Positions 6,992-22,851 are shown, counted from the first letter of the stretch. The stretch is 44,592 bases of DNA from Gammaproteobacteria bacterium (GCA_036507695.1 DATCIR010000050.1:1-44592); one strand, 5' to 3'. A program made the numbers and translations. The notes: a model not told the origin generated them from the sequence alone.

Positions 6992-7019
6992 AAAGCCCGG
7001 TAATCCGGGCTTTGTTGTC
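6992..7019 (+). terminator. hairpin, possible terminator or attenuator
   Basis: AAAGCCCGG / TAAT / CCGGGCTTT followed by a T-poor GTTGTC tail. Confidence 0.3.
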
Positions 7020-7065
7020 ATCAAGCAGTCAAATCGAACGACAAGAATTCGCAACAATCCGCAGT

Positions 7066-7590
7066 ATGAAAAACCAATCGTCCGAAAACCAACACCTCGT
7101 TAAATTTATCATTGCCTCCGCAGTTTGCTTTTTTGTTGGAACGGTGCATGGTGTACTGCAAGTCATGGCGCCAATTCGCGCCTGGCTGGATTCAATCGGC
7201 AGTCCTTACGGCGGCCCGGGCCACATGATCGATCCCCTCGCCCATGCCCACATCAATGTGGTGGGTGGCGTCGTGGTATTTATCATGGGTGCATCGTATT
7301 ACCTGATCCCCAAAATGGCCGGTATCGCCATCTATTCCAAAAAGCTGGTTGACCATACTTTCTGGTGGACGGTCTGCGGAATTACGGGGTTTTATTCCAC
7401 CTTGATGATTTTTGGAATTCTGGAAGGGCATGCGCTGCTGGCCAACCCGCATTCCGATGCTGCCGTACAAGCCATACACCGTTATTACGGACCGGCCATC
7501 GGGGGCGCCTCAACCGTCATGGGCATGGGCTTTTGGGTATATTTTATTAATGTGTTTCTGACGATTAAAAAGAAAATCCCTCTGCAATGA
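7066..7590 (+). CDS. stand-alone 4-TM protein homologous to helices IX-XII of C-family heme-copper oxidase subunit I (copy 1)
   Basis: AHAHINVVGGVVVFIMGASYYLIPKMAGIAIYSKKLVDHTFWWTVCG aligns with AHAHLALLGFSTFLEAAAVYYGLQTLLRRKLYSLALANFHFWMLLVG of the in-window CcoN-like protein (18780-20186). Start set at the first ATG (MKNQSS...). Confidence 0.75.
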   Translation: MKNQSSENQHLVKFIIASAVCFFVGTVHGVLQVMAPIRAWLDSIGSPYGGPGHMIDPLAHAHINVVGGVVVFIMGASYYLIPKMAGIAIYSKKLVDHTFWWTVCGITGFYSTLMIFGILEGHALLANPHSDAAVQAIHRYYGPAIGGASTVMGMGFWVYFINVFLTIKKKIPLQ

Positions 7591-8108
7591 CCAGCCGGTG
7601 CGCCTGCCCTAACCGTTACCCACAGTGGCATGAGCAGGATATCGATCTCAGCGGCAAACCTGTTCACGCGCTAAAAATTCCCTCGTTCCTGTATATGCCG
7701 CTTTCCTACGAAATGTATGTGCAAAAACAGCGTAATGATATAAAACAGCTTGAGCTTGAAGAAGAATGGCCGGGTTTTGTCTTAACCCGGACGGGATTTT
7801 TACGTGGCGAGCTGATCAGCCTGTTGACATCCGGTGACTCACCGTCGCGTTTTGTGCGCACCCTGGAAGGCATATTTCAGCTACGCGGCTATTTGCATAA
7901 TGGCGGCATTGGCACCGTCAAGCAAAGCATACGCACACTGCAAATGCAGTTGTTCGACCTTGGACGCATGCCCAGGGAATTATATTTATGTTACCTTACG
8001 TGCCCCGTTTGCAGCGGGCAAAAAGGCGGAGACAAGATTTTATTGCTGCGCCGCTGGAAAGAAAGCCCGACGCTAGCCAAGCGTATCAAAGCGCAAAAAA
8101 CCACATAA
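7587..8108 (+). CDS. hypothetical soluble Cys-rich protein
   Basis: 173 aa. ATGA overlap with the upstream HCO-fragment gene implies translational coupling. CxCP near the N-terminus and CPVC near the C-terminus give a possible 4-Cys metal site. No family recognised. Confidence 0.55.
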   Translation: MTSRCACPNRYPQWHEQDIDLSGKPVHALKIPSFLYMPLSYEMYVQKQRNDIKQLELEEEWPGFVLTRTGFLRGELISLLTSGDSPSRFVRTLEGIFQLRGYLHNGGIGTVKQSIRTLQMQLFDLGRMPRELYLCYLTCPVCSGQKGGDKILLLRRWKESPTLAKRIKAQKTT

Positions 8109-8128
8109 CGCGTTTTTTGATTTTCCGT

Positions 8129-8563
8129 TTATGGTTTTTGTACGTGCTTTGCCAGTGGAAAGTTCAGACCGGTTTGTTTATCGGCATCCCGCTTATGCTT
8201 GAGCTGGACCGATAATACGCCGTTTTCAGGATCATCGACAGCGATGGCCCTGCGGTAAACACCCGAGTGTCCGTCCTGGATCATTTGTTGCCATTTATCT
8301 TCCTCGTTCATCCTGATGGAAACAACATACTCATAACCCGGCACACCTTTGACATCCGTTGCCACTATTACAAATTCATTCATACCCCGGGTCGGCGCGC
8401 CAGGACGGATCTCCACCAGGAACTCAGTATCATTCCAGTGTTGTGGCACCAGGATATAAGCACTGCCCTGCCAGCAACTTAACAGCAACGTTATTATCAA
8501 CGCACTGCCAACCCGGCAGCCAAGTTTACCCGCAATGCTGCCTGGAAATTTATTCACCTGCAT
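8129..8563 (-). CDS. FixH/YtkA-like periplasmic Ig-fold protein
   Basis: Start set at the internal ATG (MQVNKF...). N-terminal hydrophobic anchor, then EFLVEIRPGAPTRGMNEFVIVATD...SIRM...GVYRRAIAV, a pattern reminiscent of FixH/YtkA domains. Last gene of the minus-strand operon. Confidence 0.45.
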   Translation of the reverse strand: MQVNKFPGSIAGKLGCRVGSALIITLLLSCWQGSAYILVPQHWNDTEFLVEIRPGAPTRGMNEFVIVATDVKGVPGYEYVVSIRMNEEDKWQQMIQDGHSGVYRRAIAVDDPENGVLSVQLKHKRDADKQTGLNFPLAKHVQKP

Positions 8564-8879
8564 GTTTTTGTAAATACCCAAGGATAATGGCCGTCTCTTC
8601 AGCATTTGGGGGCGTGACTGCCTTGTTATTCATGCGCATTTCCATGCGCTGCACCACACCCGGCCAGTGTTTGGCGGTATGGATCCGGGGTAATGGCGCG
8701 GCATGACATCCACCGCACTGGCTGAGATAAAGCGCTGCCGCCCCGGATTCGTGTTCAGGATAATCACTGGGCTGAAGCAGCTTGAAGTCCGGGTCGTTGA
8801 CGCATCCGGCAAACAGCAACGCCATTGAGAGAATTATTACACCCAGAAATATAAAGCGCAGCGCACTGTGTATTTTCAT
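8550..8879 (-). CDS. monoheme c-type cytochrome lipoprotein
   Basis: Signal peptide with lipobox LFAGC. Single CGGCH heme-binding motif. 109 aa. Confidence 0.75.
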   Translation of the reverse strand: MKIHSALRFIFLGVIILSMALLFAGCVNDPDFKLLQPSDYPEHESGAAALYLSQCGGCHAAPLPRIHTAKHWPGVVQRMEMRMNNKAVTPPNAEETAIILGYLQKHAGE

Positions 8880-8931
8880 TGCTTTGTGAGCGTGGTTTTG
8901 GTTTCACACTAGTTTTGGTTTCACATGAGTT

Positions 8932-9402
8932 TCATTTTGACGATTTTGCCTTACCCGCGGGATCCCGGCTCTTCCGGCCGTCGCCGTGGCGATCCGGCAA
9001 ATCCATATCCTCCGTGCCGTCCACACTGGAGCTGTATTTATTTACCATGAAATACACAAATGCGCCAAATACCAGCAAATACAATAGCGCGGCGCCAAAA
9101 CCCCAATCCACCCACGCCCGTTCATAACCGGGGCGATCACCCCAGAACGGGAAACTGAGACCGATTGCAACCAACAACACAGCGCCGATCACCGCCAGAA
9201 ACCACTTGGGCACACCTTTTTGGGACTGAGGTATTTTCTCCACGAGTTCCCAATCTTCCAAGCCGCGCTTTTGCCGGCGTTCTTCATCGGAAGAATAGCC
9301 GAAATTATCATCGGGAATTTCACCCCAGTTTTTCTCTGTGACTTCTTTTAGTTCCGGGGTGTGTGTTTTGTCTGCCGCAGACGTTTTGTTTATTTCAGTC
9401 AT
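8932..9402 (-). CDS. membrane protein with weak FixP_N-like segment
   Basis: 156 aa, 2 TM. GVPKWFLAVIG...PFWGDRPG resembles the LPRWW motif of the CcoP N-terminal domain and the PLWGQRP segment of the 17156-17782 product. No heme motif. Confidence 0.5.
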   Translation of the reverse strand: MTEINKTSAADKTHTPELKEVTEKNWGEIPDDNFGYSSDEERRQKRGLEDWELVEKIPQSQKGVPKWFLAVIGAVLLVAIGLSFPFWGDRPGYERAWVDWGFGAALLYLLVFGAFVYFMVNKYSSSVDGTEDMDLPDRHGDGRKSRDPAGKAKSSK

Positions 9403-9413
9403 AATCGAACAGC

Positions 9414-10721
9414 CTATTTGCTCGCTACAAAGTGTTGAACACGATAACGGTCTTGCCAGCCATCCGGTGCTGATGCGATAACCAGAAACGAATGTATGCC
9501 GGGTGGCAAGCCGTCCTTGATATGTAATTGCAGATCGATACGGCCCACGTCATTAAATCGCGCCTGTGCCAGGTCAAACTGATAGAGGGATGAATCCAGT
9601 CCGTCGACGGAAATATCCACTACCGCGGAATCATAGATTTTATTGGACACGGCAACCCGGTAGTCGGAGATTTGCGGGCCATGCATGGTATCAGCCCGAT
9701 AGACCGCCAGATGAAAGCGTTCATAACTGACCAGCCCCCACACGAACATGGAAATGCCCAGTAGTGCAAACGGCATGGTCCAATGAACCCGGGACGATAA
9801 TGATGATAACCGTGTTTTCAACAATGCAAAGCGGGTTGCATCCCGATCACCGATTTTGAACCTCAGCAGGCCGGGCTGACCCTGCTTCGCCTGCAGGCTA
9901 TTACAGGCGGTAATGCATTCCCCGCAATTAATGCAAGTATCATAGATATCGGTGCTTTTGGGATCGAGCTCCAGAAAACACTGGGTCGCGCAATAGTTGC
10001 ATTTTTCACACAAAGCGGAGCGTGAGCTATCATAGGCGATATGCAAGGTATGTTGGGTTTTAAAGCCATGCTGCCAGACTTTATAGATGCACATGAACCG
10101 GCACCAGAAATGCCGTATAAACGCGATATCCAGAAATATCACCGCAACAAAAACAAAGTAGATAAAATGCAACGACCCGGCCAAACGCGCGTCCTGCTGA
10201 AACGCAATAAAGGACCAAACAACCGCCGGAGGATAAAAGTAGAACAATGGGATCAGCGCAAACAACATGGCTGCCGCCAAAAAACTGATACCGAGAATTG
10301 CCCAGTTGGACCACTTGTTTTTATTCGCTCCCACTTTCATTTTCTCGCCATCAAGCGAGAGTTCGGCGCGTTTGCCTAATAATTTTTGCGTAAGATAGTT
10401 AGCCCACTCCGATAAACTGTTTTGCGGACAAGACCAGCCGCAAAACGCAGTCCCGACCGTGGAATAGAGCAACACCGCGCCGCTGGCCAGTACCAGCCAA
10501 AAACCAAATACCAGAAAAAAATCGGACCACCAAATCTGGCGATCGAGGACCACGAACGCTCCCGCCATTGGATCAATACGAAACAAGCCGGCTGCGGGAA
10601 TCAATATGGCAACGGCGATAGTAAACCACTGCAAAGCACGGCGTTGCCAGTGCAAACGCATACTCGCTTTGGGTGTTTCCGCCGTGATGGGAATCCCGCT
10701 GAGTGAATTATTACTTTGCAT
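9414..10721 (-). CDS. ccoG: CcoG/FixG-like membrane-bound polyferredoxin
   Basis: 435 aa. CGWSCPQN, CRFMCIYK, CEKCNYCATQC and CINCGECITAC clusters. Multiple TM helices and a C-terminal beta-rich (FixG_C-like) domain. Confidence 0.8.
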   Translation of the reverse strand: MQSNNSLSGIPITAETPKASMRLHWQRRALQWFTIAVAILIPAAGLFRIDPMAGAFVVLDRQIWWSDFFLVFGFWLVLASGAVLLYSTVGTAFCGWSCPQNSLSEWANYLTQKLLGKRAELSLDGEKMKVGANKNKWSNWAILGISFLAAAMLFALIPLFYFYPPAVVWSFIAFQQDARLAGSLHFIYFVFVAVIFLDIAFIRHFWCRFMCIYKVWQHGFKTQHTLHIAYDSSRSALCEKCNYCATQCFLELDPKSTDIYDTCINCGECITACNSLQAKQGQPGLLRFKIGDRDATRFALLKTRLSSLSSRVHWTMPFALLGISMFVWGLVSYERFHLAVYRADTMHGPQISDYRVAVSNKIYDSAVVDISVDGLDSSLYQFDLAQARFNDVGRIDLQLHIKDGLPPGIHSFLVIASAPDGWQDRYRVQHFVASK

Positions 10722-10799
10722 CGCAGAAATATACCATACAGTGACTGAACGCTCACTTAATTTGACAACTGACCTTACAATACATAACGTTATCCACCT

Positions 10800-13427
10800 T
10801 CAATGTTGCAGCGCTTTATCCAGAGGACTAAGTTCAGCGAATTTTATTTTGTAACGTTGCGCTGACTCTGCATTACCACCCTCTTCCTCCAAACGCCACA
10901 TTCGTTTTAATGCGTCAGGATGATCCGGCCGGATTTTTAAAACCGATTCTAGTATGGCTTTTTCCGATATCCCGGCAGGACGGGTCATTTCATAGTTCAC
11001 CAAGGTCGCGTCCGCCACTGCGTAACTAATCCAGTGATCGCTGGGATTGGCTTGATAGGCCAGTTTCAGAAGCCGGTGAGCTTCGTTCGAATTGTTCTGC
11101 AACATCGCCAACCAACTGCGGTGAGCGAGTTCGGTTGCAATATAAGCCCTTTCAAAGGCGGCAAAGTTGGCGCTGTCCACATTAAGCTCTGCCGCCGCGG
11201 CAGATACGTGCAGCCGATGCTGCAGCAGATAATGGAGTAATTTGGCCAAATCCAATTCCCCGCTGTAGCGCGCGCCGGGCAGCCGGAATTCTATTTGCGG
11301 CGCCCATTCATCCTGAATGGGGCCAGACTCGTCGACATTAATCCTGCCCCAATAACGGCCCAGCCAGGCAAACTGGTTTTCAGTGCCCAATATCAGCTGC
11401 CGCCCTTCTGGAGACAGTCCCGCGAGGTTTTGTTCCAGAGCGGGCAATCCAGCCAATGCTCCGTTAACGCCGACCAGTGCAATACGAAATGCATCCACGA
11501 ACAATACCGCATCAGGAAAAACGTTTTTGAATGTGCGCAGGACAATCTTGAGAGACTCCAGCTCAAATTGATTGAGGGCAATCCACTGCACAAAAATTCC
11601 GTTATCCGTCAGCCGTTGCTTCACTCGCTGGAATTGCTGCCGGGAAAGCAACGCACTGCGCCCGACCAAGTCAGGGTGAAACAAGTCACCGATGATCACG
11701 TCATGTTTCCCGGGATCAGTCTTGATAAAACGCCTGGCATCGTCGCGAATAATAATGGTATGGTCAACAATATCCATGTTGACCTGATTAAACCATTCGC
11801 CGGCGGCCTCAATTGCACCCGCGGATATTTCCACGGCAGTTCGTTCCAATTTTGGATATGCCAGTGAACTGGAAGCGGAAATTCCCGTCCCTAAGCCAAG
11901 AAACAATACCGAGCGCGGTTCCGGATGCAGCAACAGCGGCAACCGCGCCTGGTTCCTTTGTGTATGCACCGAAGCGGGATCCGAAGCAGCATCCATGCGT
12001 TGCAAGTCAGCCAGTAACAATCTTTGCCCATCCTGTTTGGCAATGACGTGGGTGATATTCAGCGCGTCCTCATAACGATACAAATCGCTGGTATTGGAAT
12101 AAATTTCCGGTGCCAGCACATGTACCGGCACCATCTGGAAGACCGGTAGCGCTGCCAGCGTAACGATAGGCAGCGAAATCCAAATAACCCGTTTATTGGC
12201 CCAGGCCAGACTAAACAGCATAATCAGCAGCGCGGACACCACAATGACCGCGTAACTACCTATCAGCGGGGTCAGCAAAAAACCGGCGGCTATTGCGCCT
12301 AATGCGGCGCCAATGGAGTTGGCTCCGTATAATCTTGCGCCGCTGATGCCAGAGTCACCCAATCGCCGGTTTAACAACGGCAGCCACGCGCCAAAAATCA
12401 ATGTTACCGGCAAGGTCAGCATTGCAATGAGCGTACCCTGGTATAACAAGGCCTGGTTCAGGGATGTGATTTGCTGGAAATCGAAAAACTGAGTGAATGA
12501 TGGCAACAGCCAAAGACCGGCCACGATAAAACTACCGGCGCAAACCGGTAAGGTGTTAAACCACGCCGCTTTCACCAGGTAGCGCGCGAAATAACTGCCG
12601 GCCGCTATGCCAACCAGAAACACGGCCAATATGATTGCCAGAACATATTCCGTTCTCAGGAAAACCATGCCAAACAAGCGCGTCCAGCCGATTTCCAGCA
12701 TCAGCGAAACCGCGCCTATACCGGCGTATGCCACCAGCAGTTGTATTTGATCCGCGCTTAACCGCCGGTCATCCACTTTTGTTGCGTGGGGTAAGGCAGC
12801 CGGTAATTGACGAGACAATATTCCCGCCGCCACCGCAACGCACACACTGATACTCACCACAATGTGGAGCGCCGATGTCCAGCCCAACGCTGGCAACAAC
12901 ACCAAGGGTAGCAGCGCGCCGATAGCTGCACCCAGGGTGTTAACCGCGTAAACAACACCTAACGAAGCCGGGACTTTTTCAAACAGGGAAAGTATTAATG
13001 GAAAACCCATACCCATGAGCAAAGCCGGTAGTAGCAATACAAATCCAGTGGCAATGAACTGCAAGAAGTACCATATACCCAGTGAGAACTGCGCGGCCAG
13101 ATTAAATTGCCACGATTCGACCCATTGAAACAGCCAGGGAATAGCCAGCGAAGTACCGGCTATCACCAACTCGATAACGGCAAAGATTGCCAGGGGATCC
13201 GAGGCATACCGTAACACCCGGGTACCCAGCAAACTACCCGCTCCCAGGCCCAGCATAAACGCGGCAACGGTAATCACCACCCCGAAGATGCTGACCCCGA
13301 ATTGCAATGCCAGCATTCTGACCCACAGGACTTCATAAGCCAGGCTCGAGAGTCCGGAGAAAAAATACAGCGTCAGCACCATCAGCAGGATCGGCTTCAA
13401 CGGGTGATCAGTTAGTTGTTTTGACAC
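10800..13427 (-). CDS. fused polytopic membrane domain / spermidine-synthase-like domain / TPR-like tail
   Basis: 875 aa. About 430 aa of 12-13 predicted TM helices. Then VLFLGLGTGISA...DVIIGDLFHPDLVGRSALLSRQQF...NGIFVQW (class I SAM/aminopropyltransferase fold). Then a helical-repeat C-terminus. Confidence 0.8.
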   Translation of the reverse strand: MSKQLTDHPLKPILLMVLTLYFFSGLSSLAYEVLWVRMLALQFGVSIFGVVITVAAFMLGLGAGSLLGTRVLRYASDPLAIFAVIELVIAGTSLAIPWLFQWVESWQFNLAAQFSLGIWYFLQFIATGFVLLLPALLMGMGFPLILSLFEKVPASLGVVYAVNTLGAAIGALLPLVLLPALGWTSALHIVVSISVCVAVAAGILSRQLPAALPHATKVDDRRLSADQIQLLVAYAGIGAVSLMLEIGWTRLFGMVFLRTEYVLAIILAVFLVGIAAGSYFARYLVKAAWFNTLPVCAGSFIVAGLWLLPSFTQFFDFQQITSLNQALLYQGTLIAMLTLPVTLIFGAWLPLLNRRLGDSGISGARLYGANSIGAALGAIAAGFLLTPLIGSYAVIVVSALLIMLFSLAWANKRVIWISLPIVTLAALPVFQMVPVHVLAPEIYSNTSDLYRYEDALNITHVIAKQDGQRLLLADLQRMDAASDPASVHTQRNQARLPLLLHPEPRSVLFLGLGTGISASSSLAYPKLERTAVEISAGAIEAAGEWFNQVNMDIVDHTIIIRDDARRFIKTDPGKHDVIIGDLFHPDLVGRSALLSRQQFQRVKQRLTDNGIFVQWIALNQFELESLKIVLRTFKNVFPDAVLFVDAFRIALVGVNGALAGLPALEQNLAGLSPEGRQLILGTENQFAWLGRYWGRINVDESGPIQDEWAPQIEFRLPGARYSGELDLAKLLHYLLQHRLHVSAAAAELNVDSANFAAFERAYIATELAHRSWLAMLQNNSNEAHRLLKLAYQANPSDHWISYAVADATLVNYEMTRPAGISEKAILESVLKIRPDHPDALKRMWRLEEEGGNAESAQRYKIKFAELSPLDKALQH

Positions 13428-13469
13428 GATGCAAGGCGTAGTTACGTAAAATAGCGGCTTTCGGCGCGA

Positions 13470-13886
13470 TTAAAACGGCCAGAACCATACCATGCCGACT
13501 ATGGCATGGCCAAGCGCCAGGGTAAGACTAAGGCCGGCAAAAACCATATGCGCTATGTACACGTCTTTGCCAAAAACACCCATTGCAATGCCGAGTCCTA
13601 CTGTAATGGATATAAACAAAAGTAGCGGCACCCCCATCGCAAACATGATTTGCCGCTTGCGTTGATCGTCTATTTTTATAATTTCACTGTCGATGACGTC
13701 CCGGGAGGTAAAAGCCTGAATAACCTGCGTTTCACTGGATTTTTGCGGTGCTTCCGCGCTACCGCCGCCTGTATCCTTGTCATCCCCGGCGCTGATAGAG
13801 GAAAAAAAAATAAAAAATAAAATAGTCAGCCTGCTTAAAGTTGCGAAATCGCGAAGCGTGCTTGTTATCGAATCGGCACCGCGCAT
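13470..13886 (-). CDS. hypothetical membrane protein
   Basis: 138 aa. N-terminal hydrophobic segment plus two C-terminal TM helices. 4-nt gap from the upstream gene. Confidence 0.5.
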   Translation of the reverse strand: MRGADSITSTLRDFATLSRLTILFFIFFSSISAGDDKDTGGGSAEAPQKSSETQVIQAFTSRDVIDSEIIKIDDQRKRQIMFAMGVPLLLFISITVGLGIAMGVFGKDVYIAHMVFAGLSLTLALGHAIVGMVWFWPF

Positions 13887-13889
13887 TGC

Positions 13890-14147
13890 TTATTGCCGCT
13901 CTTCGATGGAAGACTCTGTATCGGCTTTGTTCTCCCGTTCCGCCTGGTGCTTTTTAATGGCAAAGTGCCAATATAAAACCGCGCTCAGCACGAACGGGAA
14001 CAGTATAATCAACAACAGGAAAATAAAAATAGCCCAGGGAGTATCAATCGATACACGTAAGTAACGATAACTGTCAGCAGCAAAGGCAACATGGCAAAAC
14101 AGCGTCATCCAAATCGCCAGTATTGCCATGGTGAGTTTTGTATTCAT
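13890..14147 (-). CDS. small secreted or membrane protein
   Basis: 85 aa. Signal-like N-terminus (ILAIWMTLFCHVAFA), one further TM helix and a charged tail. Confidence 0.5.
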   Translation of the reverse strand: MNTKLTMAILAIWMTLFCHVAFAADSYRYLRVSIDTPWAIFIFLLLIILFPFVLSAVLYWHFAIKKHQAERENKADTESSIEERQ

Positions 14148-14183
14148 AAGGGATATCGTGTTTACTAAACGTCGAATTAACCG

Positions 14184-15248
14184 TTAGCCTGCCGGAACGT
14201 CTTGAACGCAGCGGAATCCAAAAAAATCTGACGCATAATGCGGCATTGAATAATTGCGGTGATAACTCGAGGTGGAAAATGGATCGCTTTTCCACGAACC
14301 GCCGCGCCGTACTTTAAACACCCGGTTTTCCAGTTCAACCAGTTCACCCACTTTCATCGCCTTATCCTCGGGTGTGTTGGCCACCAGCGCTTTTGCGGTA
14401 AACAAGGCAGCGGGCGCCGTGGACCCTTCATAGGGCGCGAAATCACTGGCGGTCCACTGGCTGACATTTCCGGCCATGTCGAATACCCCATACGGGCTTT
14501 TCCCCGATTCGTATTGCGTCACCACGGACGTTGCACCGACGTTATAGTAGGTGTTCAGCCGGGTTGGGTCCATGTTATCTCCCCATGGCCAACGGTTTCC
14601 CTGGGGACCCCTGGCGGCTTTTTCCCATTCAGCTTCCGTTGGTAACCGCTTATTTACCGAGGTACAATACGCCTGCGCATCAAACCAGGATACCATGGCC
14701 ACGGGATGCAGCAGTTTATTTTCCGGGACTTTTCCATTTTGCCAGTCCAGCGGCGGCCTGTGCTTGGTCCTGGCCACAAAGCGGGCATACTGCGCGATCG
14801 TGACAGGATATTTATCAATATAATAGCGTTGCAATACCACCTTATGTTCGGGCTGGTTTTGGGCATCGGCCCGTTCGGAGTTGGTCCCCATCAGAAACTC
14901 GCCTTCGGGTATCTCGACGATCATATCCACCTCGGCCCACTGTTCCGGAGTCAGCAAGGCGGTAACCTCGGTCAGCAAGAATGTATCATCCGCTTTTTCT
15001 GTTAATTTATGCTGCTTATGCAATTGGATGTCTTCACCGGCGGCCCGGATGCGCTTGTGTTCATCTTTGAGATCGTAGGAAGCCCTGGCGCGCATGTCAT
15101 TCATTCGATTGGCGCCCAACTTTACGACATGAAAAGCGCCAAACACCATGGCTAATGCGATACAGGTAATTAAAGTCGCAACCAGATAGCGTTTGCGCAC
15201 TAACCGTTGTTGCTCCGTCAATTGCATACGGGTGGAATGCCCTGACAT
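14184..15248 (-). CDS. membrane-anchored FGE-sulfatase (SUMF1) domain protein
   Basis: EGEFLMGT, YYIDKYPVT, HPVAMVSWFDAQAYC, RLPTEAEWEKAARG, GVFDMAGNVSQW and VRRGGSW blocks. N-terminal TM anchor. The canonical FGE Cys pair after RGGS is absent (RGGSWKSDPFSTSSYHRNYS). Confidence 0.85.
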   Translation of the reverse strand: MSGHSTRMQLTEQQRLVRKRYLVATLITCIALAMVFGAFHVVKLGANRMNDMRARASYDLKDEHKRIRAAGEDIQLHKQHKLTEKADDTFLLTEVTALLTPEQWAEVDMIVEIPEGEFLMGTNSERADAQNQPEHKVVLQRYYIDKYPVTIAQYARFVARTKHRPPLDWQNGKVPENKLLHPVAMVSWFDAQAYCTSVNKRLPTEAEWEKAARGPQGNRWPWGDNMDPTRLNTYYNVGATSVVTQYESGKSPYGVFDMAGNVSQWTASDFAPYEGSTAPAALFTAKALVANTPEDKAMKVGELVELENRVFKVRRGGSWKSDPFSTSSYHRNYSMPHYASDFFGFRCVQDVPAG

Positions 15249-15250
15249 AA

Positions 15251-15730
15251 CTACTCACTTAATGACGACTCTTTAGGTTTTTCGTCGGGTTTAACGTAGA
15301 GTTTTTCCGCTTCTTCCGGCGTGGTACGGCCGTAAATTCGCTTTATCATGATCTCGCCAAAAACGCCGCCAATAGCCGCGCACTCAACCGCCAGAATTAC
15401 AAAAAAAATCCACCAGCCAAAAGGCATTAACGTCATGCCGTCCGGCAGGTTCGTGAGATATTCACTCTCCATATAGGCGATCGTCCTGACGATGACCGGG
15501 GGAAAATAACACAACCATTTTCCGCCCAAGCCAAATACCGACGCGGTAGCCAGTCCCACGAAGATGGGAATGATGAAAACCAGAACGGCCCACTTTACAT
15601 TAAATATCGCCAGAGGATCGTTAATAGGAACCAATTCCAAGCGCACACCGAGCAACCGGTCGCCCGCATAGTTAACCAGACAGCCCACCATGATCGCAAA
15701 CGTTCCGGATACAAACCGCGCTTTTGTCAT
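15251..15730 (-). CDS. hypothetical 4-TM membrane protein
   Basis: 159 aa. 4-nt ATGA-type overlap with the upstream cytochrome gene. No family recognised. Confidence 0.55.
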   Translation of the reverse strand: MTKARFVSGTFAIMVGCLVNYAGDRLLGVRLELVPINDPLAIFNVKWAVLVFIIPIFVGLATASVFGLGGKWLCYFPPVIVRTIAYMESEYLTNLPDGMTLMPFGWWIFFVILAVECAAIGGVFGEIMIKRIYGRTTPEEAEKLYVKPDEKPKESSLSE

Positions 15731-16215
15731 GGGTTATACTCTTTACCGGTTAATTTCTCATATTCGAGTTTCTTGGTTTCTTCCAGATACCACTCTTCAA
15801 CCTTCAGACTCGCCATATATTCTGCCAGGATTATCCGATCTTGTTCCGGCGCATGCGCCAGTGATGGCATTTGATATTCTTTTTTCAGTCGCGTAGGCAC
15901 AATGTTCTGAGGATTATCCGCGGAAAAATACCGTAAAAACCATTCCTCACCTTTTAAAGAACCCAAACCATCCAGGGCGGGCGCGGGAACGGATTGCATG
16001 ATGCTGCGTTTGGTCCAAAGACTATGGCAGGCGTGACAATTATATTTTTCAAAAAGTGCACGCGCTTGTTTAGACAATTCCAGAGATGCTGTGCTGTAGT
16101 AAGGGATACCTTTATCTTCTTCTGCCTGGCTGGAGAGGTTATAAGCCTTGAGCGCGGCGGTGATTGCCACAACAACACCGATAACCGCCAAAATGCCCAG
16201 TTCACCTTTTTTCAT
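15727..16215 (-). CDS. membrane-anchored monoheme cytochrome c (CcoO-related heme domain)
   Basis: N-terminal TM helix. CHACH motif followed by LDGLGS...W; paralogous to the 23386-23964 product. Confidence 0.8.
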   Translation of the reverse strand: MKKGELGILAVIGVVVAITAALKAYNLSSQAEEDKGIPYYSTASLELSKQARALFEKYNCHACHSLWTKRSIMQSVPAPALDGLGSLKGEEWFLRYFSADNPQNIVPTRLKKEYQMPSLAHAPEQDRIILAEYMASLKVEEWYLEETKKLEYEKLTGKEYNP

Positions 16216-16261
16216 GATGCTTTATAAAGTATTCGCATGCTGCAACAATACCTGGTCTCAG

Positions 16262-16549
16262 TTACGATGCTTTTTTCTTTTCCGCCGTTTTTTGTTCGCG
16301 CGCTTCTTTCAAATACTTTTCACGCAATTCTTCCTGAGATTTATTGACTTCCATCGCCTTTTTAAATTCTTCAGGCGACATTTTGTCTTCATCGTCCTTA
16401 TCAAACACCACGTATTTGATATCTTCATCAAATTGATCGTTCTTGGCGGCCCAGCGTATGGCGATTATCGACGCGATAATGATTCCCGCGCCAGCGACCA
16501 GCCACAGATAGATTGTCCAACCGTCTTCAAGATTATTTAAAAATTCCAT
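16262..16549 (-). CDS. CcoS/FixS-like cbb3 oxidase maturation protein with extended charged tail
   Basis: One TM helix then RWAAKNDQFDEDIKYVVFDKDDED, which matches the remembered CcoS pattern F-WA-K-GQFDD...DD. A 45-aa Lys/Glu-rich extension follows. Confidence 0.55.
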   Translation of the reverse strand: MEFLNNLEDGWTIYLWLVAGAGIIIASIIAIRWAAKNDQFDEDIKYVVFDKDDEDKMSPEEFKKAMEVNKSQEELREKYLKEAREQKTAEKKKAS

Positions 16550-16558
16550 CGCTCTCTC

Positions 16559-16852
16559 CTATACTAAAAACCCGTGCATCATTTGCGCTGCGCCAAAAAC
16601 GATGGCGAAAACGACACCGAGTAGAATCATGACAAAAAGCACCTTTTCCCCTGTTTTCAGTTTTTGTGATTTGCCTTTAAACATAAAAAGAAATGCAATC
16701 ACCAGAAAAACAACAATCCCGAATATTAAAAAATAGAACATGCCGGCGCTAAAGCTTTGGCTGCTCATGCCCTCGATACTCATGTCGAAGCCAAAGGGAC
16801 GCACCTTATCGCCTTCGGCCACTTGTATAAGCTGATGAAAAATACTGTACAT
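16559..16852 (-). CDS. small 2-TM membrane protein
   Basis: 97 aa. Its second TM module (KLKTGEKVLFVMILLGVVF) is nearly identical to the N-terminal anchor of the cytochrome at 23386-23964 (VKTGEKVLFGIFGVFIF). Confidence 0.55.
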   Translation of the reverse strand: MYSIFHQLIQVAEGDKVRPFGFDMSIEGMSSQSFSAGMFYFLIFGIVVFLVIAFLFMFKGKSQKLKTGEKVLFVMILLGVVFAIVFGAAQMMHGFLV

Positions 16853-16899
16853 GCTACCAACCGGGAAATGCAGAATTAGGTAACCACATTGGATTGTAT

Positions 16900-16908
16900 A
16901 TTATATCA
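16900..16908 (-). promoter_or_regulatory. possible extended -10 promoter (TGATATAAT on minus strand)
   Basis: The minus strand reads TTGTTGATATAATATAC about 48 nt upstream of the ATG at 16852, just downstream of the terminator at 16950-16981. Confidence 0.3.
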
Positions 16909-16949
16909 ACAAGTTCACTACGGATAAAAATTGAAATCCTGTAGTAAGC

Positions 16950-16981
16950 AAAAAGCCATGCCACCTCGGGAGTGGCATGGC
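16950..16981 (-). terminator. rho-independent terminator (minus strand)
   Basis: GCCATGCCAC / 7-nt loop / GTGGCATGGC. On the minus strand it is followed by TTTTTGC. It separates the ccoN-ccoO unit from the downstream accessory operon. Confidence 0.6.
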
Positions 16982-17029
16982 TTCGACATTCATAACTTAA
17001 CTTACTTGGAGTAGCTGTCGATCGCCTCT

Positions 17030-17137
17030 TTACCCTTGTCGTATTTATCCACAAAGAAGCTGTAGATAAACGGAACGGCGTATACCATGAGTACCCAGAT
17101 TAGCATTGCAAACGGGCCATTATCTAAATCAAGCATT
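17030..17137 (-). CDS. candidate 35-aa single-TM micropeptide
   Basis: Hand-translated MLDLDNGPFAMLIWVLMVYAVPFIYSFFVDKYGQG. GGGAGAG lies 6 nt upstream of the ATG. It starts 18 nt after the FixP_N-like gene ends and precedes the terminator. Confidence 0.45.
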
Positions 17138-17155
17138 GTCGTCTCTCCCAAATTC

Positions 17156-17782
17156 TCAGTGGTGCTTCTTGTGATCCGGTTTATAGCTGTAATTTGGCAA
17201 GCGTTTTACAGCAATAATGACCGAAACGCAAAACACAATGATAAAGATGATATCGATCGTGTAGCCTTTATCCCACGTAGGTTGTATGCGAATGGTGGAG
17301 CCATCTTCACGCTTCTCACCTTCAAAATTAGCCAGTACCAGCTCGTTACCAACGACGGTGTACTCGTCCATGCGCGCCCCTTTGCGCTGCAGCTCGATGA
17401 TCTGGCCTTTGATCATTCGCAAGTCGTCCATCGTTAAGGGATGCCTTTCCTGCAGGGCCGTCCATTTTGAGCCGCCCGCGCGAACGGTATCTTCGATCCA
17501 TTTCATTGCGTCTTGGTCATTCTTGCCCTGGATCGCAGGATCGTCCATCAATTTCACATATTCTTCGTAAATCGCCGCCGTTGGGCGCTGACCCCACAGT
17601 GGCGCGGTAATCAAGAATGCTGTAATAATTGTCAGGAGCAGCAAACCTACTACCGGCGGCGGCAAACGATTGTTATTTTCAGTAATCCCACCCAGACTCT
17701 CGCCTTCCCAAAGCTTGACCGCACCCTGGTTTTGGTCATCGGTGGATAATGTATAAAGTGGATTATCAAATCTCCAAGCCAT
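17156..17782 (-). CDS. heme-less FixP(CcoP) N-terminal-domain protein
   Basis: GGITENNNRLPPPVVGLLLLTIITAFLITAPLW resembles DGIEEYDNPLPRWWF...LYP of CcoP. 208 aa, 2 TM, no CxxCH anywhere. Occupies the ccoP position after ccoO. Confidence 0.6.
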   Translation of the reverse strand: MAWRFDNPLYTLSTDDQNQGAVKLWEGESLGGITENNNRLPPPVVGLLLLTIITAFLITAPLWGQRPTAAIYEEYVKLMDDPAIQGKNDQDAMKWIEDTVRAGGSKWTALQERHPLTMDDLRMIKGQIIELQRKGARMDEYTVVGNELVLANFEGEKREDGSTIRIQPTWDKGYTIDIIFIIVFCVSVIIAVKRLPNYSYKPDHKKHH

Positions 17783-17797
17783 GTGCTACATCCCCTA

Positions 17798-18748
17798 TTA
17801 TTTTAGATTCAATACAAAGTCGATTAATGCATGCGCTTCACTGTCGGTAGCCGGCACCGGCACTTCAGGCGGATAAACGCGCGCATTAGCGACATATTGA
17901 TTATATTCAGTACGCCATTGGTCAAAGTTAATCGCATTGCCATTGGCGTCTTTCTCACCCCATAAATAATCATAACGGGGCATAATGGAGTGTGGCTGCA
18001 CTAACCGAGGATTGAAAAAGTGCATTATCATCCACTCGCGAGATGAGTTGCGTGAACCCACATGGGTTAAATCCGGAGCCTTGCGGTCTGAACCAAACGC
18101 GGTGGGACTTTCACCATTAAAGTCACCTAACATCGGCGGCGCGCCGAAATATTGCCAGTCCTGGGTTTGTTCCGGCAACAAGGTATGACACCACCAGCAG
18201 CCCTCACGGATAAACATAATCTTGCCTTTACCGATCTGGAAAGTGTTTTCGTTCGAGGCCACTTTCATGACGGCGTCCGGTGTCCAGCCACGAGTTGCGG
18301 TTACATTCTCGATGTATGGAATAGTCTCGCCGCCCTCGTCAATCTCGCGAACCACGAATACCGCGCCTTTCGTGTCATCCGCCTGCTCAATCTTGCCTAA
18401 GGTCAGGCTTTTCGCTGTTGGCTTGTCACCGAGAATGATCGGATGGCGGATACCATTCGGAAACGGTACCCCAGCGTGATACACATAAGCACGGGTAACC
18501 TCAATGCCCGCGCCGGTTTTTGGGTCTTTGGTGATTCCCACCGTAAGTGGTTTTGCCTTACCCTGTAAAAACGGGTCTTCGTAGCTGAATCCACCGACGC
18601 GTCCAAACCCCAACTGACGGTGTAATCCGGTTTCAGTCACGGATACATTACGCATGTCCGAAGCCGGCATGTACAGCGTTATGAACATCGAAGTACCAAA
18701 GGCGATCCCGAACATGCGGGCTCCAATTGTATATTCTCTAAATGCCAT
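17798..18748 (-). CDS. ccoO: CcoO-like monoheme subunit with about 150-aa insertion
   Basis: N-terminal TM helix. IREGCWWCH heme motif. FGSDRKAPDLTHVGSR, WMIMHFFNPR and SIMPRYDYLW match the CcoO blocks. About 150 extra residues sit between the anchor and the heme domain. Confidence 0.85.
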   Translation of the reverse strand: MAFREYTIGARMFGIAFGTSMFITLYMPASDMRNVSVTETGLHRQLGFGRVGGFSYEDPFLQGKAKPLTVGITKDPKTGAGIEVTRAYVYHAGVPFPNGIRHPIILGDKPTAKSLTLGKIEQADDTKGAVFVVREIDEGGETIPYIENVTATRGWTPDAVMKVASNENTFQIGKGKIMFIREGCWWCHTLLPEQTQDWQYFGAPPMLGDFNGESPTAFGSDRKAPDLTHVGSRNSSREWMIMHFFNPRLVQPHSIMPRYDYLWGEKDANGNAINFDQWRTEYNQYVANARVYPPEVPVPATDSEAHALIDFVLNLK

Positions 18749-18779
18749 GGTTTAAATCCTCCCAGTATTTTTATAATTA

Positions 18780-20186
18780 TCAACGTTCGTAGGCCAATTC
18801 ATGCGGTAAACGTCCGGCAGGGATCAACGTACCCTGACGCATTGTCTTCCACATGTTGAACAGCCATACACAGTTACCCAGGAATACCATGGTGCCGCCA
18901 ACCCAACGCGCAATCATGTACGGATGCTCGGCGATAACGACATCAATGTACGGCACTTCGTAGATTTTACCGGCGCCTTGGATCAATCCGGCGATGGTCA
19001 TGGAAATCCAGTAGGTGGTAAAACCAACCAGCAGCATCCAGAAATGGAAATTCGCCAGCGCCAGTGAATACAGTTTGCGCCTCAACAAGGTTTGCAATCC
19101 GTAGTAAACCGCGGCCGCTTCCAGGAAGGTCGAGAATCCAAGCAAAGCCAGATGGGCATGGGCCACAATCCAGCCAGTACCATGAATGTACCAGTTAATC
19201 GCGCGGGTTTGCTGGAAACCGCCTTGCATGTTTAAAGGAATAGCCATCAACACACCGGTTATGGTGAATTTGATTTCCACGTTCTCAACAAACATTTTCC
19301 ATTTGCCGGACATCGTCAGCAGCAGGTTGGATACGAAGGCGATCGCGGGTACCAGTATCAACACGCCCTCTACTGACGCGAAAGATTTCAACCATTCCGG
19401 CAGTGGCGCTGACATCAGATGATGGGCAGCGGGTGTTGAGTAAAACACCACAACCGACCAGAAATGCAAATGACCAATTCGGTGCGAATAGAGCGGATTG
19501 CCCGTTACTTTGGGTACGATGTAATACGAGATTGCAGCGGCAACCGGGGTAATCCACAAGCCCAGTACGTTGTGTGCAAACCACCAGGTCAGGTAGGCCT
19601 CGGTCAAACCGGTTAACTGGAAGAACTCCGGTGAGTTACCGACGGTGAACACAACAATAACCATGAATGTCGCTGCGCCAAAGAACCAGTTGGTGGTGTA
19701 AATACCCTGGGTGCGGCGGGTTTTTATGGTCATCACGACATTCAAGCACAGGGGGGTCAAAATACCGAAAATAATCGCCAGGTCGATCGGCCAGATCATG
19801 TCTGAGTATTCACGGCCGGATGACATGCCAAACCACAGCAGTGTCAATCCCAGGCCGAGACCCAGGTTCCAGATAAAGCAGTTCCAAATGCCCAGCTTTT
19901 CAGACCAGAGCCTGGTATTTCCCAATGCCGGCGTGATATACATCATCGCCATCGCAAACGCCATGGAAATCCAGCCCAGGATTACCGCCAGTACGTGAAC
20001 CTGGCGCATATGGCCGAACGATAGCATTTCAATTCCGGTGACAAAATCAGGAAACGCGAGCTTCGCCGCGTTGAATGAACCCAGACCGGTACCCACAATA
20101 AACCACAGAATGGACGAAAAACCGAAAAATATCGCCGCCGAACCTGGCGGGATATCTTCGTTTTTAGCAAATAAATATTTAATCAT
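18780..20186 (-). CDS. ccoN: C-family (cbb3-type) heme-copper oxidase subunit I, divergent
   Basis: 468 aa, about 12 TM. FGHMRQVH (helix II His), WWFAHNVLGLW (CuB His), FYSTPAAHH (Tyr six residues before HH, as in cbb3) and VAHAHLALLG (helix X HxH). Confidence 0.9.
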   Translation of the reverse strand: MIKYLFAKNEDIPPGSAAIFFGFSSILWFIVGTGLGSFNAAKLAFPDFVTGIEMLSFGHMRQVHVLAVILGWISMAFAMAMMYITPALGNTRLWSEKLGIWNCFIWNLGLGLGLTLLWFGMSSGREYSDMIWPIDLAIIFGILTPLCLNVVMTIKTRRTQGIYTTNWFFGAATFMVIVVFTVGNSPEFFQLTGLTEAYLTWWFAHNVLGLWITPVAAAISYYIVPKVTGNPLYSHRIGHLHFWSVVVFYSTPAAHHLMSAPLPEWLKSFASVEGVLILVPAIAFVSNLLLTMSGKWKMFVENVEIKFTITGVLMAIPLNMQGGFQQTRAINWYIHGTGWIVAHAHLALLGFSTFLEAAAVYYGLQTLLRRKLYSLALANFHFWMLLVGFTTYWISMTIAGLIQGAGKIYEVPYIDVVIAEHPYMIARWVGGTMVFLGNCVWLFNMWKTMRQGTLIPAGRLPHELAYER

Positions 20187-20240
20187 TTAACAACCCCTCT
20201 CCAAAAATAATTTCTATACGCGCAATCTACTAGTAATCGA

Positions 20241-20345
20241 TTAGGATTGGTTTTTCAGGCTGTCACGAGGCATCAACAGATACCATCCAAACCACATACT
20301 CGAAAAAGCCAGCGCGATACACATAACGGTTGCGAACATTGACAT
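20241..20345 (-). CDS. candidate 34-aa single-TM micropeptide
   Basis: Hand-translated MSMFATVMCIALAFSSMWFGWYLLMPRDSLKNQS. AAAGAGG lies upstream of the ATG. Immediately upstream of ccoN. Confidence 0.4.
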   Translation of the reverse strand: MSMFATVMCIALAFSSMWFGWYLLMPRDSLKNQS

Positions 20346-20410
20346 GGCGTTAACCTCTTTATCTTAAAATTGAATCTTTAAATTTAAAAAAAGTTCTACC
20401 CATCGAACAT

Positions 20411-20674
20411 TTACCCGGCAGCCTGACGCTCTAACGCATTGTGGCGATTAACCGCTACATGAAGTGTGATGTAAAACGCGACACCGAAAATAATCATCGC
20501 CCAATCAATAAAACCGGTGAAAGTCACGGGATTATACGCGTCTCCGAACCATCCTCCCCAGTCAGCAAACTTGCCGCGCCCCAGGAAACACATTAGCGCG
20601 GCACCAAACACACTGCCATTACCCATCCCGGTGAGCATGCCGGACACAAAACAAAGTATAAATGGATTCTTCAT
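20411..20674 (-). CDS. small membrane protein
   Basis: 87 aa, 2-3 hydrophobic segments. Strong GAGGAGG Shine-Dalgarno. First gene of the minus-strand cluster. Confidence 0.55.
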   Translation of the reverse strand: MKNPFILCFVSGMLTGMGNGSVFGAALMCFLGRGKFADWGGWFGDAYNPVTFTGFIDWAMIIFGVAFYITLHVAVNRHNALERQAAG

Positions 20675-21273: not shown

Positions 21274-21468
21274 ATGAAAGAATTAATTATTTTTGTGGTT
21301 GTCGCTTTAAGTTCACTGTTTATTCTTGGCTATTCCATCCATATGTTGATTGGAGGCCTCGTAAGTCCGCAAACTGAAAAAATTTCCATTATAACGGCCG
21401 TTGTTATTGGCGCGGTTCTAATTGTTTTTTTAGGTTTAGATATCCTCCGCCAACGCCGGAAACGGTAA
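21274..21468 (+). CDS. small 2-TM membrane protein
   Basis: 64 aa. Two hydrophobic helices and an RQRRKR tail. Confidence 0.5.
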   Translation: MKELIIFVVVALSSLFILGYSIHMLIGGLVSPQTEKISIITAVVIGAVLIVFLGLDILRQRRKR

Positions 21469-21674: not shown

Positions 21675-22127
21675 TTAGGCAAACACTTTTAACGTACCGC
21701 CCAGCTTCTGGTACTCGGTTTGGTTGTTAAACTGTCCTTTGTGAAACACATATTGCCGCCTCGTCCCTGACGTGTCTAACCCGGTTAGGCCGAACGATTT
21801 CCCCGCGTGGTCCGAGAAGTATCGAACATTTTTTACCAGTTCGATCCTCCCGCCATTGCGCAATTGAAGCTGAACCCGTTGCTTGTTGACATCCAGCGCC
21901 ACCGGAGTATTCGGCAACAACATCAGCCGGCCCAGGATACGGTGTAGCCCCTGATAGAAGAAAAAACACGCCAAAAAAAACAACAGGTAGGCCAACGCAT
22001 GATTGGGCTGGTACCAGAAAATAGCCGCCCCGGTACCCAAACCGGACACGGTGGGAATATACATCAGCAGATCCCAGATTACGCCTTTGCGGTCCTGCGT
22101 TAATTCATAGCGGTCGGATTTTGCCAT
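21675..22127 (-). CDS. hypothetical membrane protein (2 TM plus soluble C-terminal domain)
   Basis: 150-aa ORF. Its start codon lies inside the first unit of the 14-bp tandem array. Confidence 0.55.
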   Translation of the reverse strand: MAKSDRYELTQDRKGVIWDLLMYIPTVSGLGTGAAIFWYQPNHALAYLLFFLACFFFYQGLHRILGRLMLLPNTPVALDVNKQRVQLQLRNGGRIELVKNVRYFSDHAGKSFGLTGLDTSGTRRQYVFHKGQFNNQTEYQKLGGTLKVFA

Positions 22128-22284: not shown

Positions 22285-22851
22285 TTATCCCGCGTTATCC
22301 GGAGATGTGTTTGTGTTCCGTGGCGCGGGTTGGGCGGAACTCACACTGGATTCGCTACGCAGTAATCCCGCGATAATCATATCCAACTCGTTATATAACA
22401 TGCGGCCGGGTTGCTTGAACCTGACAACGTTCGAGCCATCAATAACATAGGTCCATGGATCCCCGATTACGCCAAATGCCTTAAATGCTTGCGGGTTTTG
22501 ATATTGATCCATATGTAAAAAGATCACATCCTGCTCATACTTCACTAACAGGGCTTTTAACATCTGCAGTTGGTTATCACACATTGTGCAATGGCCCGGT
22601 GTGGCAAACTCCAGAATAATTGGCTTATTTAACGTCAAGGCTTCATCAAGCGACAACAGGTACATGCGCTCGTCCGGATAGCGATAGGTGGTAATTCGGC
22701 TAAAATCTCCGCTCACATCATGCAGAGTTTTGGTGCGTAAGCTGGGAGCGCTCATCCCTACCTTGAGACTGCTGTCATCAATGGAACAGCCCGCCAGCAT
22801 TATCCCCACCAAAAACAGCGGGAGAAACCGCAATGTCGCGCGTCTTTGCAT
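22285..22851 (-). CDS. thioredoxin-fold lipoprotein (CxxC)
   Basis: Start set at MQRR..., where TAATG overlaps the stop of the upstream gene. Lipobox LAGC. ILEFATPGHCTMCDNQ is a thioredoxin-like CxxC motif. Confidence 0.7.
   Translation of the reverse strand: MQRRATLRFLPLFLVGIMLAGCSIDDSSLKVGMSAPSLRTKTLHDVSGDFSRITTYRYPDERMYLLSLDEALTLNKPIILEFATPGHCTMCDNQLQMLKALLVKYEQDVIFLHMDQYQNPQAFKAFGVIGDPWTYVIDGSNVVRFKQPGRMLYNELDMIIAGLLRSESSVSSAQPAPRNTNTSPDNAG

Follow-up and report, generated by a model that had tools for sequence, protein, structure and literature searches.

Several described respiratory systems bear on the gene cluster considered here, which lies on the minus strand of a 44,592-nucleotide (nt) stretch of DNA from an uncultured gammaproteobacterium (GCA_036507695.1, DATCIR010000050.1:1-44592; this whole stretch is hereafter called the window) and surrounds the gene for an unusual cbb3-type haem-copper oxidase. 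The canonical form of this enzyme combines the subunits CcoNOQP with the products of ccoGHIS (Pseudomonas stutzeri, PDB 3MK7; Rhodobacter capsulatus). A further form is known from papers on iron oxidisers, which separate a proximal from a distal cbb3, citing Ducluzeau et al. 2008. Expression of the distal ccoN and ccoO genes of Sideroxydans ES-1 is reported to lie at about the 99th percentile; Ferrovum JA12 yielded just subunits I and II, and the authors of that study proposed that subunit III is replaced by co-localised cytochromes; and Nitrotoga genomes mostly contain no other terminal oxidase. Additionally, Candidatus (Ca.) Tenderia electrophaga carries a conserved 26-gene (26 orthogroups) cbb3-1/cbb3-2 region, which the preprint calls "a sort of alternative complex IV" (bioRxiv 10.1101/2022.05.06.490989). 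The gene for Cyc1, a dihaem c4 cytochrome, is part of the syntenic Tenderia region, and synteny of the Cyc1 region with Mariprofundus had emerged from earlier transcriptomics (mSystems 2017, PMC5371394).

Judged by its predicted genes, the window matches the Tenderia region in gene content and order. Both run from a di-haem cytochrome c through a monohaem cytochrome c, a truncated CcoN, a thioredoxin and small proteins to CcoN, CcoO, hypothetical proteins, a monohaem cytochrome c, a "Ser/Thr kinase" and a small single-transmembrane protein, and end with CcoG, a monohaem cytochrome c and a truncated CcoN; we take the "Ser/Thr kinase" to be the FGE-fold protein treated below. A locus from a Ca. 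Tenderia metagenome-assembled genome (MAG) is colinear with the window, and its CcoN is 86% identical. The window, with a 99% match to MAG PMV_4.23, derives from another uncultured gammaproteobacterium, and the published description, in its accessible part, leaves most genes unnamed and lacks the identifications made here of a CcoP anchor, a paralogue of this anchor, CcoS, a terminator and an insertion in CcoO. The cluster also seems to be what papers on iron oxidisers call "distal cbb3", sharing with the distal enzymes of Sideroxydans, Gallionellaceae and Zetaproteobacteria a C-family CcoN/CcoO pair outside the proximal clade, the lack of ccoQP and an associated Cyc1 homologue. However, that label spans several lineages, and its Ralstonia and Cupriavidus members, unlike the window, have a simple CcoN-CcoO-cytochrome c-SCO cluster. 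The preliminary description of this DNA had raised the possibility that the exact cluster was already characterised: it has indeed been described by comparative genomics and transcriptomics, but not biochemically. None of the papers we found names, for this region, the CcoP remnant, the inserted CcoO domain, the terminator or the FGE and spermidine-synthase (SpdS) genes, and the "distal" definition and the Zetaproteobacteria cassette are cited second-hand. What was already known is the gene block as delineated by comparative genomics; new here are the CcoP anchor remnant, its paralogue, the putative CcoS and CcoG homologues and the absence of the catalytic cysteines from the FGE-like protein.

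We read the region, with a probability of about 0.7, as encoding the distal cbb3 cytochrome c:O2 oxidoreductase that serves neutrophilic iron oxidisers, Nitrotoga and electroautotrophs resembling Tenderia; the electron donors of the enzyme and a non-canonical set of maturation proteins would be encoded with it. The cluster spans neutral-pH iron oxidisers (Gallionellaceae, Zetaproteobacteria, Ferrovum), the nitrite oxidiser Nitrotoga and cathode-oxidising relatives of Tenderia; its reported expression in Sideroxydans is very high, yet no member has been purified. The subunit composition, O2 affinity and proton stoichiometry (given altered channel positions) of this enzyme would bear on energy conservation from very low-energy donors at low O2, as does copper and haem insertion without a cluster-encoded CcoI or CcoH, and the conserved accessory genes furnish a ready candidate list for new oxidase-biogenesis factors.

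Extent and conservation of the gene block

The cluster was first described as extending over positions 8129-20674, and the open reading frames (ORFs) listed for it are all present there on the minus strand, the strand on which every gene below lies unless a plus sign is given. The unit is larger than this, at about 7012-25036, and forms a strongly conserved block of about 26 genes around the cbb3-type oxygen-respiring enzyme. Beyond the original limits it takes in a Cyc1-like dihaem cytochrome, a second anchored cytochrome, two truncated CcoN paralogues and a thioredoxin-fold lipoprotein, and two conserved micropeptides of 34 and 44 amino acids (aa) also belong to it. Where about 19 co-directional genes spaced by 0-50 nt with overlaps had been described, the order, strand and overlaps stand, but the gaps are mostly 0-78 nt and two are larger: 224 nt upstream of ccoN, holding the 34-aa micro-ORF, and 149 nt with a hairpin. 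The genes for a 162-aa cytochrome (cyt162) and a 159-aa membrane protein (m159) overlap by 4 nt, and those for another cytochrome (cyt109) and the longest ORF of a possible lipoprotein (p158) by 56 nt. In other respects the preliminary description survives as a whole, in that its ORFs, a divergent subunit I with C-family hallmarks, a large insertion in CcoO, a haem-less protein in the CcoP slot, a hairpin parting an enzyme unit from an accessory unit and the absence of a P-type ATPase (ccoI) were all recovered, while ORF and family searches recovered the FGE-like protein, the MFS/spermidine-synthase/TPR fusion and two monohaem cytochromes (with CHACH and CGGCH motifs).

For comparison, one genome per species was scanned; 268 loci encode a relative of subunit I, and the best 80 of these were compared. 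Subunit I of these best 80 of 268 loci is 82-99% identical, and the loci belong to uncultured Gammaproteobacteria, Ca. Tenderia, Gallionella, Sideroxydans, Ferrovum and Nitrotoga (two loci), with the protein matches to subunit I including Zetaproteobacteria as well. A tblastn search with every window protein showed that, wherever a locus is of sufficient length, gene order and orientation agree with the window in essentially every case, the colinear stretch running from the 87-aa protein upstream of ccoN through the 156-aa protein after CcoG. The upstream module of dihaem cytochrome, anchored monohaem cytochrome, truncated CcoN, thioredoxin-fold lipoprotein and 150-aa protein is conserved too, and a Zetaproteobacteria MAG has an equal layout from the monohaem cytochrome onward, without the dihaem cytochrome directly upstream. 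The recurrence of the same neighbours beside subunit I orthologues, proposed earlier as a check, holds across essentially all 80 loci. That the accessory genes are fortuitous neighbours of a ccoNO pair could draw on the fact that a functional link lacks experimental demonstration, but synteny refutes it: order and orientation are the same in Gamma-, Beta- and Zetaproteobacteria, with neighbouring proteins 40-60% identical, and we give this explanation a negligible chance. Nor is the locus a canonical CcoN in a chance juxtaposition with unconserved genes, because subunit I falls outside the proximal clade and its neighbours are strongly conserved. Some close homologues (P0271, P0391, P0393, P0463; 73-90% identical) bear the label "Kaarinaea lacus", which was set aside as a clue to the host; these entries are probably proteobacterial contigs contaminating a cyanobacterial assembly, because the genus belongs to the Nostocales cyanobacteria.

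The block is divided by an intrinsic-terminator-like hairpin (16949..16984) with a 14-bp stem and a U-run, situated after the 44-aa micropeptide gene. The stem occupies 16952-16984 with the U-run next to it, and shuffled versions of the whole 158-nt intergenic stretch fold less well than the stretch itself (z = -3.3); a simple consensus terminator scan missed this hairpin. A terminator-like hairpin is found at the equivalent position in 67 of 71 related loci, with differing sequences and stems mostly of at least 10 bp, several being weak 6-8 bp matches. Since the terminator is conserved, the two halves of the block are presumably expressed at different levels, and it would act by lowering expression of the downstream genes.

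Subunit I and its substrate

The catalytic subunit I of the "distal" C-family enzyme, CcoN (18780..20186), is identified by Pfam, PDB, tree and ligand evidence. The product matches Pfam COX1 with E = 3e-75 and, among PDB chains, matches P. stutzeri CcoN best (E = 8e-61), with the NorB of cNOR reaching 1.5e-6; against NCBIfam TIGR00780 it scores 219 bits, below the equivalog cut-off of 583. The core site of haem b, haem b3-CuB and Tyr is intact. All six His ligands of haem b, haem b3 and CuB (window H64, H205, H255, H256, H343 and H345) align with P. stutzeri H60, H207, H257, H258, H345 and H347 and are invariant in 11 clade sequences. The cross-link Tyr, Y249 (P. stutzeri Y251), lies in helix VII six residues before the HH pair and is likewise invariant in the clade, its place being taken by Ser in two NorB sequences; the Ca-site Glu and the haem-propionate Arg residues R57 and R437 are invariant too. 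In a neighbour-joining (NJ) tree with 100 bootstraps, which included NorB, ba3 and CtaD sequences, the window clade is recovered at 100% and the C family at 95% with NorB, ba3 and CtaD outside it, whereas the proximal CcoN clade (P. stutzeri, Ruegeria) forms a separate group at 99% that excludes the window clade; deeper nodes inside the C family are unsupported. By this tree subunit I belongs to the C family without being part of the canonical (proximal) CcoN clade. The window clade itself is tight, with at least 78% identity, and collapses to one full-length representative at 50% clustering; its nearest full-length relative is 38-40% identical and canonical CcoN 28-29%.

Several positions set the clade apart from canonical CcoN. 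In P. stutzeri numbering, Y317 is changed to Ala, S240 to Gly or Ala, E323 to Gln and E125 to Asp, while T215, Y223, H243 and N289 are kept. We take the K_C proton channel to be lined by Y317 and S240, among a set of channel positions that we take to comprise T215, Y223, H243, N289, S240 and Y317, and E323 is presumably the residue that hydrogen-bonds the His ligand of haem b3. These changes at the proposed channel positions Y317 and S240 and at E323, along with the divergence of subunit I from canonical CcoN and the kinship of C-family enzymes to nitric oxide (NO) reductases, could be taken to mean that the enzyme is primarily an NO reductase or reduces some substrate other than O2. However, subunit I has both the cross-link Tyr and the CuB His triad; it carries Thr at position 215, where two NorB sequences have Glu, so that the signature expected of an NO reductase (no cross-link Tyr, Glu at 215), which those two NorB display with Ser and Glu, is absent from the clade sequences; the similarity to NorB is just E = 1.5e-6; and the gene encodes the sole candidate terminal oxidase in most genomes of the aerobic Nitrotoga. 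We therefore consider such an alternative substrate improbable. Because the six His, Y251 and Thr215 are present, similarity to NorB is low and most Nitrotoga have no other candidate oxidase, the choice between O2 and NO, which the preliminary description could not make, leans clearly towards O2, and the enzyme is most likely a high-affinity O2 reductase that would be fed by free cytochromes.

Wider sampling of the family yielded some unrelated observations. Among full-length C-family-like representatives (P0121-P0269), about a third to two-fifths are without at least one haem or CuB His ligand, and 11 C-family-like representatives have Ala at the H60 position; because so many lack a haem or CuB His, the alignments suggest a sizeable population of ligand-less CcoN-like proteins. 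The relatives from Cupriavidus metallidurans and the Ralstonia solanacearum chromid, with their simple CcoN-CcoO-cytochrome c-SCO cluster (L081 8734-10401; L082 8698-12973), are 32-33% identical, and the Cupriavidus CcoN ORF begins with a segment that by eye looks to be of the FixS type, which suggests a CcoS-CcoN fusion.

CcoO, the CcoP slot and the electron donors

CcoO (17798..18748) is a monohaem cytochrome c with a clade-specific inserted periplasmic domain at residues ~30-173. Only residues 174-266 match FixO/CcoO, at positions 55-150 of solved chains, so that ~120-145 extra residues separate the N-terminal helix from the haem domain. The insertion is conserved in the clade and modelled with a predicted local distance difference test score (pLDDT) of 88-97. 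A Foldseek search with the CcoO model matched CcoO chains only, and the inserted domain had no significant PDB match; its weak matches, including RuvA and SSB proteins, all had probabilities below 0.1 and were rejected. The CcoO of the nearest outgroup is without the insertion and carries a second C-terminal haem motif instead.

The slot of CcoP is occupied by a 208-aa protein (17156..17782) devoid of any CxxCH motif, with two predicted long hydrophobic helices (42-62 and 174-193), a helical domain between them and an AlphaFold2 model of pLDDT 69.8. The window protein matches Pfam FixP_N weakly, and all 38 of 38 orthologues match FixP_N and nothing else. Its Glu35, set in a GI(T)E motif, is invariant and aligns with the GITE of Ruegeria CcoP, and we take it to correspond to Glu49 at the channel entrance of P. 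stutzeri CcoP. A profile of the protein run against PDB sequences gave no CcoP match, and its hhalign comparison with a single Ruegeria CcoP gave a weak motif alignment only. Because FixP_N is found in all orthologues and the GITE Glu is invariant, the protein is a CcoP membrane anchor that lost its haem domains, an identification to which the motif alignment and the model also contribute.

Three further small genes are co-transcribed with the core, namely those for the two micropeptides and an 87-aa membrane protein (g87; 20411..20674). The latter has a TGMGNGSVFGA..MC motif and lies directly upstream of ccoN in 79 of 80 loci; the 34-aa hydrophobic micropeptide (20241..20345; LAFSSMWFxWYLLMP) lies upstream of ccoN in nearly all loci; and the 44-aa hydrophobic micropeptide (17002..17135), kept in 70 of 80 loci, follows the CcoP-slot gene and ends the enzyme unit.

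Haem domains of the kind lost from the CcoP slot occur elsewhere in the block. The periplasmic dihaem cytochrome c (24275..25036; Cyc1/c4-like, two stretches matching Pfam Cytochrom_C) matches positions 199-283 of the NCBIfam ccoP model with E = 2.9e-10, its haem domains thus being CcoP-like; it heads the cluster in most loci, and its place is that of gene 2 (di-heme cytochrome) in the Tenderia region. After it comes a 192-aa membrane-anchored monohaem cytochrome c (23386..23964; Pfam Cytochrom_C, E = 3.9e-9), conserved in position, and the accessory unit contributes the 162-aa N-terminally anchored cyt162 (15727..16215), with C60, C63, H64 and M116 at least 95% conserved, and the lipoprotein monohaem cytochrome c cyt109 (8550..8879), which varies between lineages. 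The soluble dihaem cytochrome and the anchored monohaem cytochromes are candidates for supplying in trans what CcoP lost, and electrons could pass from Fe(II), nitrite or a cathode to these cytochromes and on via the haem c of CcoO and haem b to b3-CuB and O2.

Accessory and flanking genes

The preliminary description held that the layout departs from the canonical ccoNOQP-ccoGHIS order. This stands for the haem-less CcoP slot and for ccoI, since no ORF for a P-type ATPase with the DKTGT motif occurs in the window or in the 80 related loci with 10-kb flanks. It does not extend to the whole maturation set: because putative CcoS and CcoG homologues are present in the cluster, part of ccoGHIS appears to be retained. 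The CcoS/FixS-like maturation protein (16262..16549), which has a charged C-terminal tail, matches Pfam FixS with E = 0.0017 and 18.5 bits, under the gathering threshold of 23.1. In a Pfam scan of a mixed set that pooled the small cluster proteins with their orthologues, for which 25 of 38 matched families are listed, FixS was the sole family named consistently, with seven matching members, equal to the number of orthologues included, and a best E of 5e-5. Among the families listed the small proteins show no FixQ match, and for CcoH there is no FixH match; a weak YtkA-like match (E = 0.0073) came from one member that the mixed set leaves unnamed, so that its tie to the possible lipoprotein p158 (8129..8605), possibly YtkA/FixH-like, variable between lineages and found in 13 loci, is uncertain. 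The CcoG-like polyferredoxin membrane protein (9414..10721; Pfam Fer4_5 and Fer4_18) scores 94 bits against TIGR02745 (cut-off 317) and has two CxxCxxCxxxC motifs plus two CxxxC pairs that are at least 95% conserved. After CcoG comes a 156-aa paralogue of the CcoP-remnant anchor module (8932..9402; hhalign probability 90.8%, E = 1.2e-6).

Other products of the accessory unit have no counterpart in canonical clusters or no family match. The anchored FGE-fold protein (14184..15248; Pfam FGE-sulfatase, E = 2.6e-52) is without the FGE catalytic cysteines, the stretch that separates the RGGSW motif from the C-terminal FRC being free of Cys; we assume, from human FGE, that the catalytic pair would be expected after RGGSW. 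Its closest PDB relative is SUMF2/pFGE, the non-catalytic FGE paralogue; unlike SUMF2/pFGE, the window protein is anchored by a hydrophobic N-terminal segment, and its gene belongs to a respiratory cluster. The gene at 10800..13427 encodes a fusion of multi-transmembrane (MFS-like), spermidine-synthase-like and TPR regions (NCBIfam NF037959, 97 bits against a cut-off of 40; Pfam Spermine_synth). The remainder are a 97-aa hydrophobic protein (16559..16852) and the 159-aa multi-span hydrophobic m159 (15251..15730), neither with a family match, an 85-aa protein (13890..14147) with a signal-like N-terminus, one hydrophobic helix and a DSYRYLHV motif, and a 138-aa protein (13470..13886) with a hydrophobic C-terminal region whose H113 and H127 are at least 95% conserved in 15 sequences.

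Two truncated CcoN paralogues flank the cluster, each covering about the last third of CcoN with its HxH kept, and the two are 28% identical to each other. The 187-aa copy (22851..23414) matches positions 292-427 of the COX1 profile and 342-461 of the ccoN profile, retains the helix-X HxH, aligns to CcoN residues 320-448 (E = 2e-16) and has H76, H78, H114 and H118 at least 95% conserved across 43 sequences. The 192-aa copy (7012..7590, plus strand) stands where the Tenderia region has its gene 26, a truncated CcoN. Next to the first lies the gene for a thioredoxin-fold lipoprotein (22285..22866; weak Pfam Thioredoxin match), conserved in position, with an HCxxC motif and a further conserved His (C22, H87, C88, C91 and H113 at least 95% conserved). 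Separately, a similar small "cytochrome C oxidase subunit I" gene adjoins an annotated cbb3-type subunit I gene on the Ruegeria pomeroyi megaplasmid (L083 8153-8626).

Taken against the canonical enzymes, the window has in common with them the metal ligands and the Tyr, a CcoO haem domain with CxxCH and the SIMP Met, and putative CcoS and CcoG homologues, but differs in its CcoO insertion, a CcoP reduced to an anchor, the lack of a FixQ match and of CcoI and CcoH in the cluster, and its extra FGE-fold, MFS/SpdS/TPR and truncated CcoN genes. On our preferred reading of a distal cbb3 oxidoreductase with its own maturation set, the genes downstream of the terminator would mature the enzyme, inserting haem and copper without a cluster-encoded CcoI or CcoH; this set would comprise CcoS, CcoG, the anchor paralogue, the FGE-fold protein, the MFS/SpdS/TPR fusion and small His-bearing membrane proteins, and the thioredoxin-fold lipoprotein and truncated CcoN paralogues may also take part. 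A bolder version, which we advance as a tentative possibility, is that the clade constitutes a distinct C-family sub-type with its own architecture and its own assembly route. In such an enzyme CcoN would be joined by a CcoO whose new periplasmic domain serves for docking, by a CcoP anchor devoid of haem and by two or three micropeptides; free high-potential cytochromes of lithotrophic donors would be its direct source of electrons, and it would acquire copper and haem independently of CcoI and CcoH by way of truncated CcoN scaffolds, the FGE-fold protein and the MFS/SpdS/TPR fusion. We know of no truncated CcoN scaffolds, FGE-fold proteins or MFS/SpdS/TPR fusions in oxidase biogenesis.

The same accessory products might instead be structural or electron-transfer subunits, the ~26-gene block encoding one large membrane machine of the alternative-complex-IV type, as the Ca. 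Tenderia preprint already proposed (bioRxiv 10.1101/2022.05.06.490989). It agrees with this that hydrophobic membrane segments or lipoprotein signals are found in most of the products, which are kept together as a block, and that the truncated CcoN paralogues keep four conserved His. However, the conserved terminator implies unequal expression of the two halves; cyt109 and p158 vary, and some Gallionellaceae have the upstream module in inverted orientation or at another place; and CcoS and CcoG are known maturation factors of canonical cbb3 systems. On balance we regard a single machine of this kind as rather unlikely.

Certain points weigh against the distal-oxidoreductase reading itself. No member of the clade has been characterised biochemically in the literature, and the roles given to the accessory genes are drawn only from co-location, motifs and weak homology. 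CcoN, CcoO and CcoG all score far under the NCBIfam equivalog cut-offs. That the "distal" genes of Sideroxydans belong to the window clade is our own inference, and the two Tenderia papers differ on which is the main oxidase (bioRxiv 10.1101/2022.05.06.490989; PMC5371394). Finally, with Y317, S240 and E323 replaced across the clade (Y317A, S240G, E323Q), proton uptake or pumping may differ from that of the canonical enzyme.

The remaining genes lie within the upstream module or at the edges of the block. A 150-aa protein (p150; 21675..22127), with hydrophobic N-terminal segments and a C-terminal domain, has no Pfam or NCBIfam match and is conserved in position. A 64-aa hydrophobic protein is encoded on the opposite strand (21274..21468, plus) and is 47% identical to the product of an equally placed gene in a Zetaproteobacteria MAG; this gene and that of the 34-aa micropeptide were both absent from the earlier list and are conserved across classes. 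Convergent with the cluster, a Bact_hydrolase-family protein (7587..8108, plus; Pfam PF20603, E = 1.4e-8) had no match in the 80 related loci and, going by its position, is probably gene 25 of the Tenderia region. A MotA/ExbB-family gene (26019-27002, plus), divergent from the dihaem cytochrome gene, is kept beside the cluster in the closest gammaproteobacterial loci (56-83% identical) and not in Gallionellaceae.

As to regulation, an Rfam search of the whole window at the gathering threshold gave no match, and the intergenic regions of the cluster held nothing convincing by way of FNR/Anr boxes (TTGAT-N4-ATCAA), the nearest being a site with two mismatches between p150 and g87 and one with a single mismatch at 25870, ahead of the dihaem gene. 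Short tandem repeats with a period of 12-15 nt and 4-7 copies occur at 20805-20862, 22124-22220, 25204-25273 and 25349-25407. They fall in the three longer intergenic regions of the cluster, one ahead of g87, one separating the thioredoxin-like gene from p150 and one ahead of the dihaem cytochrome gene. These repeats may be regulator binding arrays.

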